Virus genome (UHGV): UHGV-1596397
Reading direction: 5' to 3' (one strand)
Source of the DNA: a virus
DNA length: 22,209 nt
This document shows positions 6,001-9,000 of the stretch, piece after piece. The position numbers were made by a program. Within the stretch, counting starts at the first letter, position 1, and every line of letters starts with the position of its first letter.

Positions 6001-9000
6001 AACATGGGATATTCGGAAGCCGTATATAGATAAAGTGTTGGTCATTAATTCATCAATGTATGACTGATATGCCTGTCAGTATGAATATTAAGTAATAAAA
6101 CTAAATTCATCTTAGATAATACGGGGTTATTTTATTATAGGAAAAGTCTAAAAATGAAACATACCAGAATTATTTTTGCGTGCACAACTTTTGTGATGAG
6201 TTTTGTAGCAGCCCCTGCCTGTGCAGCACAAGGTGACAGTACAGTTTCTTTCGGATACGCTCATCTTCAGCTCTCTGGACTGAACAATTTTGTTAAGGAT
6301 TTAAGTCTTTATAATCTTGATACTTTTAACCGTTTTACAAACAGACACTACTTCAATTCAGGCGAATATGCAGATGCTTCTGTCCGGGGGCATGATGGCA
6401 AAGGCAAATCTCCTCAGGGGATGAGCATCAGGTATCGTTATGAGATAACGGATGAGATTGGTGTTATAACATCTTTTACATGGGCGCGTTCTATGACTAA
6501 TGCGCAGGCATTTATTGATATTAACCCAGGAGATGAATCCAGAGAGGTTAAAAATCCGGCAGCTTCAGCGAGAACTGATATCAGGGCTAATTACTGGAGT
6601 CTACTATCCGGTCCTTCGTGGCGGTTTAACGAATACCTCAGTGTGTATGCAATGGCTGGTATGGGGGGTGCAAAAGTCACCACTGACTTGAAAATTAACG
6701 ACAATCTTAATCATGGTGCCGGTAGTTTTTCTGAAAGCAAGAGTACTAAAAAAACAGCACTTGCATGGGCTGCTGGTGCACAATTTAACCTGAATGAAAG
6801 TGTTGCTATGGATGTCGCGTATGAAAGCTCCGGATCCGGTGACTGGCGCACGAGTGGGGTTATTGTAGGCATTGGCCTGAAATTCTGAGTAATACCCGAC
6901 AACATGTCATAACCCGCTGTGATAGCGGGTTTTTTGTTGCCCGTGCAGGGCAAAAATCGTAGATTATGCGCGGGTGCCTTTCGGCTGATGGCTGGAAGGT
7001 GAACCTGAAGGCCTGATGTGGAAAGGCCCCGAGTCAACTTTAATGTTAACCCGAGGCCCTAACCATCATACCTTAAGCAAGTAGAAGGTTAGCGCCTCTC
7101 CACTCAGGAGGCAAGCGCTATGTCGCAAAAATCGCTCATCACCGTCACAATTTGTATGACGGTGATCTTCACCATCTGGATGTTACACGGCTCGTTGTGT
7201 GAGTTCCGGCTGAATTTGTGGGGAGCGGAGTTTGCGGCGTTCTTACAGTGTAAGCAGTAGGAAAACCGCGACGGGGACGAAAGTCCCCGTCAACTGGTTG
7301 CTGAGGTTCAGCCGATATGGCACCCGTTTCTGGTGAGAGAATGGACGACACAATTCTCCGGTATATGCAGCGTGTTGTGAGAAATTCCCGCAACCCTGAA
7401 TTTATGAATGAAGTTAAAGACGCCTGCCTTAAAAAGCAGGCATTTTGCTTTGAGGCACCGGATGGTTTTCTGGTGCTGCGTTCTGTGCTCAGTGACGACG
7501 GTATCCCTTATGTTCTGGTGTTGCTGGGTGTGTGTACGGGGAGTGCCGGTGTTGAGCGTTATCTGCCGGAGGTGAAGACATTAACCCGTCTGGCTGGCGG
7601 ACGCTGGGCTGAATTCCACACGGCAAGGCGGGGATTTATCCGGCTGGGAAAACGTCTGGGCTTTGAGCGAATGCCGGATGATGAGGATGGCTTCATGGTG
7701 TTCAGGATAGCGGTCTGACTGCCACTGTATTCATTATCGTGTGTAAACCAATTGCAATTCACATTCTGACCCTGCCCCGGCAGGGTTTTTTGTTATCCAG
7801 GGGGCCATAATGGGCGGAAAAAAAGGCGGTGGTGATACCAAAGTAAAACCAACAGCAGCGCAAATAGCACAGGAAGAAGTGGCCTGGAAAGGGTGGCAGG
7901 ATTATCAAAAAATCCTCCGCCCGGCTGAAGATAACTTCATGGAAAAGGTCGATGACCTGAACAGTGAGCAGCAGTACGACAATATTGCTGGCACCACAAA
8001 TCTGGGGTATCAGAAACAGTTTGGCGAAGCACGGAAGGAGCTGGCGGGTAATCTTGCTCAGTCCGGTGTTGACCCGTCCAGTGGTCGCTTTAACGCGGTA
8101 ATGAATGCGAACCAGAGTGATCAGGTAACCGGGCAGATTGACACAACCACACGGGGGCAGGTATCGCAGGCAGATAAGTATGTTGCCGGGCTACAGGATG
8201 TTGCGGCTCTCGGTTCCGGTCAGAAGGCAGATGCGTTACAGAGTTTTAACTCCTTGGCTGACAGCAGTCTGGCAAAAGCCAAATCGGATGCACAGGCGGC
8301 GTTTACGAAACAACAGGGGCGAGCTTCTCTTGTTGGCGCTGGTCTGGGAGCTGTAGGTGCGTACGCGATGCATAAGGCTGGCGGTAACGGAGGTGGTGGC
8401 GGCGCTAAAACGCCAGGCACCGGCGCTAATGCTATTCAGCATCAGGCTCAGAACTGGAGACTGTAATTATGGAGTATGGCAAATACGAAACTCTCGCAAG
8501 GGCTGGTTATTCAGGCGCAGCCCGCCCACAGGGTGACTGGCAGACATCCGCCGCGCTGACACGCCAGCAATACGACGACTGGCGAACCAGATATTTGCCC
8601 CGCGTGGCAAGGCTGGCTGACCTTGGTGAGAACAACAGCCTGATGAATGCACAGCTTGCCCGGGTAGGTGGCCTTGCCACTTCCAGTCTCCGTACAGCGC
8701 AGATGGCACAGGATAACCAGATGGCGAGATACGGGGTAAACCGTCCGGATAATCCCAACAGTAACACGCTGGGTTTACGTAATGCACTGGCAATTGCTGG
8801 CGCGAAAAATGGTATACGGGAAGCAGAGCAGGATCGCCAGATGAACATACTGACTGGTGCTTCTGCACCTGCAAGACAGCAACTGAGTGTTGGTGGACAA
8901 CTGGTGTCAGGGTAAGGGGAACGATATGGGATACGGTTTACTGGATATTGCGAATCAGTCACGTCGAGAGGCATTACAGGGAATAAGTGACGCCGACAGG

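Follow-up and report, generated by a model that had tools for sequence, protein, structure and literature searches.

The window, a stretch of 22,209 nt from the virus genome UHGV-1596397, very probably carries a complete hok/sok-type type I toxin-antitoxin cassette in a Stx-type prophage. A more specific reading, whose chances we place slightly below even, is that the locus is a mok-less hok/sok variant and that its antitoxin is the RNA known from publications as precursor to the phage 'microRNA' 24B_1. As a system the locus is of an ordinary, known kind, Hok toxins being common in prophages of E. coli, and its gene is already annotated and catalogued. The cassette lies in a short-tailed Stx-type (Traversvirus-like) prophage, between the terminator of lom (6154-6888; Pfam Ail_Lom, 116 bits) and the next gene. 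Its elements, together with its left boundary, are as follows.

6911..6938, plus strand: intrinsic terminator of lom, left boundary of the hok unit (terminator scan: AACCCGCTGTGATAGCGGGTT then TTTTTGTTG)
6937..6965, plus strand: predicted weak sigma-70 promoter of hok (-35 TTGCCC 6937-6942, 17-nt spacer, -10 TAGATT 6960-6965)
6971..6988, plus strand: tac-like 5'-end element (CGGGTGCC, TT, TCGGCTGA), which pairs with the fbi-like element
6972..7131, plus strand: hok mRNA leader (Rfam RF01794, named 'sok', a model built on the hok-sense strand)
7015..7079, minus strand: predicted Sok-type antisense RNA, with predicted ends (single-stranded 5' tail at about 7079-7061, 16-bp hairpin 7060-7023, then UCCACAUC)
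7016..7084, plus strand: short upstream ORF of 22 codons with a conserved ATG, ending 35 nt 5' of the hok ATG
7028..7048, minus strand: equivalent of the 20-nt 24B_1 (within the Sok hairpin, the end of the 5' arm, the loop and the greater part of the 3' arm)
7086..7114, minus strand: predicted Sok promoter (-35 TTGCCT 7114->7109, 17-nt spacer, -10 TAACCT 7091->7086)
7091..7119, plus strand: anti-SD hairpin (AGCGC-C-UCUCC, loop ACUCA, GGAGG-CAA-GCGCU), predicted to sequester the hok Shine-Dalgarno (SD) sequence
7106..7111, plus strand: hok SD, AGGAGG, 8 nt 5' of the ATG
7120..7260, plus strand: hok CDS, ATG start, 46 aa, HokA-like (Hok cluster 72, peptide 72_1589)
7270..7291, plus strand: 3' GNRA hairpin, a perfect 9-bp stem (GACGGGGAC 7270-7278, GAAA loop, GTCCCCGTC 7283-7291)
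7308..7326, plus strand: fbi-like 3' element (TCAGCCGA, TAT, GGCACCCG), at which the hok homology block ends

The 46-codon gene encodes the peptide MSQKSLITVTICMTVIFTIWMLHGSLCEFRLNLWGAEFAAFLQCKQ and is confirmed, by family assignment in Pfam, PHROGs and RefSeq annotation, as that of a genuine Hok/Gef membrane toxin. It matches Pfam HOK_GEF (PF01848) with 33.2 bits, the gathering score being 22 (E 4e-8; residues 8-44 aligned to positions 6-42 of the 42-position profile) and, over its full length, PHROG 251 'MokW-like host killing' (85.8 bits, E 2.8e-24). These scores bear out the Hok core recognized in the original prediction and exclude a chance match of the C-terminal residues, which it had named as a possible refutation. 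The strong ribosome binding site that it described is the SD listed above, which reads AAGGAG or AGGAGA among the variants, and its transmembrane N-terminus corresponds to a hydrophobic segment spanning residues 6-22 (mean Kyte-Doolittle 2.32). By inspection, residues C12, T14, L26, C27, E28 and E37 match family-conserved positions, defined as those kept in more than 80% of 1264 Hok peptides, and a second Cys is found at C44. The ORF has the length (~40-55 aa), the single hydrophobic helix and the C/T/LCE/E residues of Hok/Gef proteins. The best-scoring named Hok subfamily is HokA (NF007290), with which the peptide shares the ...SLCE...AAFL.CK C-terminal half including the second cysteine. However, with 38.4 bits for an equivalog cutoff of 89 it is not a HokA orthologue, and the cutoff of the Hok subfamily NF007279 is also missed (22.7 bits for 73). 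PADLOC returned no defence-system match.

Ten CDS variants encode the identical protein, all 10 variable sites being synonymous, and pN/pS equals 0.34 across the Hok cluster. By this pattern of substitution, hok is under purifying selection. The protein is identical in Sp5/VT2-Sakai and Phi24B (45784-45924 in HM208303) and is present across many phage lineages, while a hok copy occurs in about a third of complete E. coli genomes. Related loci were retrieved with an alignment of six Hok variants as query. The cassette is found intact in several unrelated genomic contexts, and the homology block common to P2-like prophages and other contexts extends from the promoter to fbi (window 6952-7325). 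The gene had been presented as unannotated, which holds for older phage records (VT2-Sakai NC_000902, Phi24B HM208303 and many LC6454xx) but not for RefSeq, where the PGAP entry WP_000078907.1 is a Hok/Gef family protein. The exact peptide is moreover listed as 72_1589 in Table S2 of a preprint by Escalera-Maurer et al. (10.1101/2025.08.07.668861). There it was chosen to represent a high-abundance cluster and cloned as LRP157 for an overexpression toxicity assay; the non-toxic sequences (3 of 45) were 19_179, 60_1482 and 69_1540, and 72_1589 is not among them. The assay constructs carried the CDS alone with a fixed SD, and Sok, Mok and mRNA structure were deliberately left aside. The preprint mentions neither 24B_1 nor Sp5. 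The sole locus-relevant statement from Faridani 2006 / Fozo 2010 is that of '14 Hok/Gef genes in Sakai'.

The RNA elements surrounding the gene are those of a hok mRNA. The promoter shows 8 of 12 consensus matches, one fewer than the 9/12 scan rule, and its TTGCC and TA-ATT are kept in relatives from different genomic contexts; the transcript would start at about G6972. A covariance-model search had been proposed along with the original prediction. In a local search RF01794 does match the leader, starting at 6972 (40.7 bits, E 1.3e-7), but no match anywhere in the window attains its gathering score of 59. Two sister copies score 42.8 and 47.4 bits, and an R1-type locus used as control scores 87.2 bits on the hok strand with a match ending at the hok ATG, which confirms the strand of the model.

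The two ends of the mRNA are predicted to pair. The tac-like and fbi-like elements contain two exact 8-nt complements in register, and their duplex (-32.2 kcal/mol) is equalled by none of 2000 shuffles and by none of the 3098 other 20-mers of the window. The minimum free energy (MFE) fold of 6972-7327 (z -9.1) contains this end pairing together with the SD hairpin and the 3' hairpin. Among 54 relatives the two tac/fbi helices are paired in 92% and 89% of cases, with changes that are mostly one-sided. When all elements are pooled, 91.9% of cells are paired in these 54 relatives, compared with 35-43% after a shift of the partners by 1-3 columns. In the anti-SD hairpin the outer GCGC/GCGC helix is paired in all 54 relatives (100%); the inner helix is paired in 73% in the register of the window, three pairs being changed on both sides. 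This hairpin forms in the MFE fold whether the mRNA is full-length or 3'-trimmed, and the folding model predicts that the hok SD is sequestered even in the trimmed mRNA. Downstream, the terminator scan found no terminator directly 3' of fbi; the first terminator-like hairpin (7422-7450) lies inside the next gene. The annotated start of that gene, ATG 7317, falls inside fbi. Since PHROG 610 aligns from residue 9 of the gene product, ATG 7341 is indicated as the start and the annotated one is probably wrong.

The 3' hairpin begins 9 nt past the TAG stop of hok, one less than the 10 nt first counted; the perfect 9-bp stem and its GAAA loop are as described, and no U-tract follows on the plus strand (AACTGGTTGC). 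Its local fold has an energy of -23.6 kcal/mol (z -5.2). Pairing is maintained at 99.8% in 54 distinct relatives, with compensatory changes in 4 of the 9 pairs, and the GNRA loop is kept in 53 of 55 sequences. The hairpin occupies the position of the terminal stem of processed hok mRNA in plasmid R1, where stem-breaking mutations abolish the processed mRNA (PMC9841398). By this analogy we infer that, once hok mRNA has been processed to its active form, the hairpin protects its 3' end. The position in R1, the covariation and the loop conservation agree with the earlier view of the hairpin as a folding or stability element rather than a terminator.

On the opposite strand a Sok promoter, which the original prediction could not map with confidence, can be placed: its -35 hexamer overlaps the hok SD and reads TTGNNN in all 55 relatives, its -10 TAACCT is present in 54 of the 55, and the spacer has 17 nt in 46 relatives but 18 nt in the other 9. 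Covariation within the Sok hairpin gave no signal above shuffles, in an alignment that contains an indel and a register shift between two hairpin types. For this reason we relied on folding both strands of each variant. In the window the Sok region folds to -30.8 kcal/mol (z -6.2) on the minus strand and to -17.4 on the plus strand, and in each of 29 variants the antisense strand gives the more stable fold (mean -27.7 versus -17.6). The locus encodes an antisense Sok RNA in cis, directed against the hok leader and transcribed from a separate promoter, both promoter and transcript ends being predicted.

The element that is lacking is mok. As the original prediction had reported, no overlapping frame can be mapped: in the window, none of the frames opened by ATG, GTG or TTG extends over the start codon of hok. 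Of 56 related variants, 33 likewise lack such a frame and the others have inconsistent start sites for it, and a search of all ATG, GTG and TTG starts yielded no consistent alternative mok start. The short upstream ORF ends, in the window copy, 7 nt before the anti-SD hairpin. Its ATG at 7016 was considered as a mok start and rejected, as the frame reaches hok in 8 of 57 variants only and stops at many positions elsewhere. In R1, Hok is synthesized only if mok is translated as far as the hok SD (PMC9841398). A literature search for mok-less hok loci gave no relevant description.

Because the K-12 hokA leader is cut by IS150, an R1-type plasmid locus (L093) was taken as comparator. Like hok/sok (parB) of R1, the locus encodes a small Hok/Gef membrane toxin and an antisense RNA gene whose promoter overlaps the hok SD region. 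Promoter, tac, Sok-target leader, SD region, hok, 3' hairpin and fbi follow in the same order, and both leaders match the same Rfam model (87 bits in the R1-type locus, 40.7 here). Unlike R1, however, the locus has no mok reading frame and no terminator directly after fbi, its toxin is shorter (46 aa, against 52) and shares with HokA a hard-coded C-terminal Cys, and it resides in a prophage late region rather than on a plasmid. A second relative is the hokW-sokW locus of Sakai prophage 5, whose type I nature has been validated by experiment (Takada et al. 2021, PMC8621323); it is likewise of the hok/sok type and carried by the same Stx2 phage type. There the antisense RNA neutralizes the toxin, and killing sets in once that RNA decays. 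HokW is made after mitomycin C induction and speeds lysis and phage release (PMC8621323). The two loci are not the same: HokW, as derived from the primers, is a different protein (51 aa, MKQQKAM...), hokW is encoded ~13 kb off on the opposite strand of VT2-Sakai, and the window does not contain it. The 46-aa Hok was outside the scope of the hokW-sokW study (PMC8621323). Stx phages such as Sp5 thus carry two different hok loci, which matters for the interpretation of single hokW-sokW deletions.

By analogy with R1, the full-length hok mRNA would be locked and inert through the tac/fbi pairing, until slow 3' trimming to the GNRA hairpin removes fbi and lets the leader refold. An abundant, unstable Sok would pair with the leader (~7017-7079), and the duplex would be destroyed by RNase III, possibly with the help of Hfq. 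When Sok falls, upon prophage induction or loss of the element, Hok would be made and would insert in the inner membrane, leading to collapse of the membrane potential and of ATP. A ribosome terminating on the short upstream ORF is a candidate for opening the SD hairpin; direct ribosome entry at the strong SD after refolding is an alternative candidate.

Two other readings bear on the toxin side of the locus. The 3' stem-loop might be a transcription terminator, for hok or for a minus-strand transcript, instead of a stability or processing element. A consensus scan does flag its minus-strand version, in which the stem is followed by CGGTTTTCCT. However, the plus strand has no U-tract, and the conserved fbi, partner of the 5' end, sits downstream of the hairpin, so that a functional transcript must read through it. 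For a minus-strand transcript, no minus-strand ORF of at least 100 aa is found within ~1 kb to the right of the hairpin, all annotated neighbouring genes lie on the plus strand, and the loop is a GNRA on the plus-strand reading alone, as it is in the 53 of 55 relatives. We regard a terminator as very improbable. A regulatory relic, in which the toxin ORF has stayed intact but, for lack of mok, its mRNA never yields protein, leaving a silent hok remnant that the phage carries along, is unlikely, though less so. Such silence could be expected from the lack of mok in the window copy and in most variants, given the need for mok translation in R1, and from an SD sequestered in both predicted forms of the mRNA; chromosomal hok loci have also been reported as inactive or degenerate. 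But exclusively synonymous changes (10 of 10) and an identical protein across many phage lineages are unexpected for a silent gene. The tac/fbi pairing, 3' hairpin, SD hairpin and Sok promoter are all kept, some with compensatory changes, and the cassette has reached several unrelated contexts in intact form, with a copy in about one third of complete E. coli genomes. The original prediction had left the choice between a variant and a decayed copy; purifying selection on Hok and the conservation of every RNA element favour the variant.

The antisense RNA connects this variant to 24B_1 of phage Phi24B. The published 20-mer (TAACGTTAAGTTGACTCGGG, HM208303 45711->45692) aligns with the window with one substitution and one extra loop base. 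The forward primer for the '80-nt 24B_1 precursor' matches 7077->7052 exactly, and the p24B_1 boxes predicted in PMC4426718 (CGCTAACCT, TTGACT) are the same boxes as those of the Sok promoter. The 20-mer, the predicted promoter and the '80-nt precursor' of Phi24B thus map onto the Sok gene. Published data for Phi24B include 2223 minus-strand reads of 24B_1 after induction and binding of Hfq to an 81-nt 24B_1 precursor, both of which map to this Sok gene; the published RT-PCR of the '80-nt transcript' used random hexamers and therefore cannot tell the strands apart.

In that literature 24B_1 is a trans-acting, microRNA-like regulator of d_ant and sdhB (PMC4426718, PMC10732415). The minus-strand RNA might be chiefly such a regulator, its overlap with the hok leader being incidental. 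The published deletion and complementation phenotypes speak for this reading, as does the binding of the 20-mer to sdhB mRNA in vitro, which is weak (less than 10% bound at 100 nM). Primer mapping indicates, however, that the 189-nt 24B_1 deletion also eliminates the hok promoter, the entire leader and some of the hok SD, and that the complementing pUC18_24B1 insert contains the complete hok/sok locus, in which the hok ORF is intact. As hok signals are removed in the one and hok is carried on the other, these experiments do not separate the small RNA from hok/sok. Nor was hok considered: the word does not occur in any of three 24B_1 papers, PMC4426718 and PMC10732415 among them, and type I toxin-antitoxin systems are likewise unmentioned there. 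Finally, in promoter, position, strand and shape the RNA conforms to a Sok. A chiefly trans-acting regulator is accordingly improbable, while a trans role could exist in addition to the Sok role.

If the minus-strand RNA is indeed a Sok antitoxin, the 20-nt 24B_1 would be a stable fragment of the Sok hairpin, comprising the loop and 3' arm. At least some of the 24B_1 phenotypes (lower ATP, altered lysogenisation and induction timing) would then stem from the removal or over-dosing of a Hok toxin cassette. Since the deletion and complementation constructs for 24B_1 also remove or carry the expression signals of hok and the gene itself, the published phenotypes call for controls in which Sok and Hok effects are told apart. 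The locus joins two literatures, on hok/sok and on 24B_1, neither of which cites the other: a 'microRNA-size' RNA that was promoted as the first functional one in bacteria lies within a classical type I toxin-antitoxin locus. On this reading Sok must also control hok without the translational coupling provided by mok. A large Hok cluster keeps the toxin and all the RNA switches with no conserved mok frame, and this mok-less cluster offers a natural test case for the control of hok by Sok in the absence of translational coupling.

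The locus belongs to the hok/sok kind and is already known and annotated. The names tac and fbi, taken from plasmid R1 hok/sok, denote the 5'-end and 3' elements of the hok mRNA that pair together; Sok is the predicted antisense RNA.

Features of the hok/sok locus and its surroundings
6911-6938, plus strand: lom terminator, directly 5' of the hok promoter-like pair
6937-6942 and 6960-6965, plus strand: weak hok promoter-like pair, TTGCCC and TAGATT, 17-nt spacer, kept in relatives
6971-6988, plus strand: tac-like 5' element, first 18 nt, CGGGTGCC-TT-TCGGCTGA
7016-7084, plus strand: upstream ORF, 22 codons from a conserved ATG at 7016
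From about 7079, minus strand: predicted Sok RNA, free 5' tail and 16-bp hairpin (7060-7023)
7114 to 7109 and 7091 to 7086, minus strand: predicted Sok promoter, -35 TTGCCT and -10 TAACCT, 17-nt spacer
7091-7119, plus strand: SD hairpin, a local hairpin locking the hok SD in folds of the hok mRNA
7106-7111, plus strand: hok SD AGGAGG, 8 nt 5' of the ATG
7120-7260, plus strand: hok ORF, ATG start, product MSQKSLITVTICMTVIFTIWMLHGSLCEFRLNLWGAEFAAFLQCKQ
7270-7291, plus strand: 3' hairpin, perfect 9-bp stem, GAAA loop, 9 nt past the TAG stop, no U-tract
7308-7326, plus strand: fbi-like 3' element, TCAGCCGA-TAT-GGCACCCG, complementary to 6971-6988
7317-7718, plus strand: gene 3' of hok, 133 aa, PHROG 610, unknown function, annotated ATG inside fbi
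7422-7450, plus strand: terminator-like hairpin, GCCTGC-CTTAAAAA-GCAGGC then ATTTTGCTTT, inside the CDS of the gene 3' of hok

The original prediction of a Hok-type ORF with a ribosome binding site, a transmembrane N-terminus and a 3' stem-loop was right in all essentials. The 46-aa peptide matches Pfam HOK_GEF (33.2 bits; gathering score 22) and PHROG 251 'MokW-like host killing' (85.8 bits) while falling under both cutoffs of the NCBIfam HokA and Hok models, and residues 6-22 are strongly hydrophobic. Its coding variation indicates that Hok is clearly maintained: all 10 variable sites among 10 CDS variants with identical Hok protein are synonymous, and pN/pS is 0.34 for the entire Hok cluster.

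The gene had also been called unannotated. This holds for many of the 198 phage records, mostly Stx-converting, in which the hok region is found and the gene is often unmarked; in VT2-Sakai/Sp5 and Phi24B the lom-orf66 (vb_24B_43) spacer, which carries no annotation, codes for the identical protein. However, PGAP names it WP_000078907.1, 'Hok/Gef family protein', in the E. coli UCPROB-002 chromosome, which is 100% identical to the hok region and where hok has an Ail/Lom gene on one side and, on the other, a series of hypothetical genes leading to a giant LPD38-domain ORF. The exact peptide appears in the protein collection as 'Hok/Gef family protein' and 'protein HokA', and a related copy occurs in 1750 of 5426 complete E. 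coli genomes, in up to nine places per genome. It is also peptide 72_1589 of a 2025/26 Hok survey (bioRxiv 10.1101/2025.08.07.668861). As LRP157, it was cloned there for an arabinose-overexpression assay that found 42 of 45 sequences toxic; 72_1589 is outside the three non-toxic ones. Copies resembling those of E. coli or Salmonella were also seen on contigs labelled Xanthomonas pisi, Planococcaceae MAG and Vagococcus sp. (L007, L008 and L010). At 76-100% protein identity with Hok of the window, these copies probably owe their labels to contamination or mis-binning. Towards the window's right end, Rfam sRNA-Xcc1 (RF02221) has two full-length minus-strand matches about 530 bp apart, at 21217-21302 and 21751-21839 (73.4 and 69.1 bits; gathering score 53).

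Identity with hokW was considered and rejected. HokW of hokW-sokW (PMC8621323) is a different protein of 51 aa, encoded at a separate locus some 13 kb distant in Sp5, and the window contains no hokW. In VT2-Sakai the two loci lie at about 57.8 kb (AP000363, hokW-sokW) and 44.7 kb (NC_000902, same phage, present hok). Stx phages of this type therefore have two hok loci, and a second hok was still present when the phenotypes published for hokW-sokW deletion were measured.

The promoter-like pair places the predicted start of the hok mRNA near G6972. Rfam RF01794 matches the plus strand at 6972-7131 (40.7 bits, E 1.3e-7), under its gathering score of 59. With an R1-type plasmid locus as control, the model reaches 87 bits in a hok-strand match that ends at the hok ATG, so what this 'sok' model represents is the sense-strand hok leader. 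Pairing of tac and fbi is a defining trait of hok mRNAs (PMC9841398). Here the duplex amounts to -32.2 kcal/mol, a value reached by none of 2000 dinucleotide shuffles and none of 3098 other window 20-mers, and it is included in the MFE structure of 6972-7327 (z -9.1). P2-type copies carry a terminator about 30 nt past fbi, whereas the scan 3' of fbi in the window found none before 7422-7450; in this phage context, the primary hok transcript could end at that hairpin. The PHROG 610 profile aligns to the next gene from residue 9 only, and ATG 7341 is preceded by GGTGA. The true start of this gene is therefore probably 7341 rather than 7317, which would leave fbi outside the CDS.

Related cassettes lie 3' of lom in other Stx-like phages, past ogr at P2-like prophage ends, beside ykgM in O157, and in Salmonella. 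The block they share starts just 5' of the -10 box and extends as far as fbi ends (6952-7325), so the functional unit is promoter-to-fbi. In three E. coli chromosomal loci (L003, L005 and L006; about 1500-1880 per locus) the cassette stands at the extreme prophage end, directly past ogr and adjoining the host flank (serS, ihfA or flk), and is followed by its own intrinsic terminator. Counted over 54 distinct aligned copies, pairing holds in 91.9% of the named hok structure but falls to 35-43% if partners are shifted by 1-3 columns. For the 3' hairpin it reaches 99.8% in these copies, with both sides changed at 4 of its 9 pairs, and 53 of 55 copies have a GNRA loop there, namely GAAA, GCAA, GUAA or GAGA. 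In R1, the mRNA that has been processed and can be translated has its 3' end at a stem-loop in the same position, and mutations that break this stem-loop eliminate that mRNA (PMC9841398). The proposal that this hairpin is a stability or folding element is thus well supported. It is unlikely to be a terminator because fbi is located downstream.

The Sok promoter, previously left unmapped, is now placed at 7114 to 7086 on the minus strand; 54 of 55 relatives keep its -10 box, and all of them have TTGNNN as the -35. The Sok strand folds at -30.8 kcal/mol (z -6.2), compared with -17.4 for the sense strand, and is the more stable in 29/29 variants. Covariation of the Sok hairpin was not demonstrated on the alignment, which contains an indel between two hairpin types. 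No other part of the locus varies nearly as much within the Stx-phage clade as the Sok loop and 5' tail (diversity 0.34 and 0.29): the values are about 0.09 in the Sok stem and promoter and at most 0.03 in the tac-ucb region, hok CDS and 3' UTR. In the alignment of copies (A2), the loop (7039-7044) and 5'-tail target (7060-7079) are indel-rich among otherwise near-identical Stx-phage copies, and the tail comes in several discrete types, which are shuffled between the phages. These may be recognition elements diverging between co-resident copies.

The failure to map mok was justified: no ATG, GTG or TTG frame overlaps the hok start in the window. Among relatives, the frame from the equivalent of ATG 7016 reaches hok in 8 of 57 variants and stops after 1 to 25 codons elsewhere; when any canonical start is allowed, an overlapping frame is still lacking in 33 of 56 variants, and the starts used in the others are inconsistent. 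The original prediction allowed for a variant or a decayed copy. Since Hok is maintained, the locus is better described as a mok-less variant. In the window copy the short upstream ORF ends 7 nt before the SD hairpin, which a ribosome terminating there might melt. However, this cannot be general, since the Sp5 and Phi24B type has an upstream ORF of 8 codons whose stop is about 80 nt upstream.

Judged by sequence mapping, the predicted antitoxin RNA of this locus appears to be '24B_1', an identity unrecognised in the literature searched. In 2015 a 20-nt RNA, TAACGTTAAGTTGACTCGGG, was reported from the Phi24B lom-vb_24B_43 spacer (2223 reads, 80 min post induction), with a predicted promoter (-10 CGCTAACCT, -35 TTGACT) and an '80-nt precursor' hairpin (PMC4426718). 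Within the Sok hairpin, the 20-mer maps to the loop plus the 3' arm (equivalent to 7048 to 7028 in the window), and the published promoter maps to the Sok promoter; the precursor primers map to 7077 to 7052 exactly and to 6997-7018 with one mismatch. The 189-nt 24B_1 deletion corresponds to about 6923-7108. Lost with it are the hok promoter, the leader in full and sok, as well as one half of the lom terminator and some of the hok SD. The complementing insert (Phi24B 45473-46037) contains the entire locus with an intact hok ORF. Because the RT-PCR was primed with random hexamers, it does not distinguish Sok from the hok leader. The 2015, 2023 and 2025 24B_1 papers make no mention of hok, sok or toxin-antitoxin, and the Hok survey does not mention 24B. 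Within the literature searched, only a 2017 mini-review has both '24B_1' and 'hok', unconnected and in separate sections of the part available. The cellular ATP drop reported in 2023 with plasmid or prophage might, speculatively, be an effect of a leaky membrane toxin.

By analogy with R1, the end-paired full-length hok mRNA would be inert until 3' trimming to the GNRA hairpin removes fbi; Sok would bind the leader and the duplex would be degraded, and Hok would be made once Sok is lost. As the cassette's place is behind lom in the late region, late transcription antiterminated by Q could cross the lom terminator, and on induction this read-through may flood the cell with hok-sense RNA. Such flooding would fit both an RT-PCR signal that appears only once the phage is induced and a role in lysis timing like that of HokW. 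What interest remains in the locus comes from its lack of a mok frame and from the identity, so far unrecognised, of its antitoxin RNA with 24B_1.
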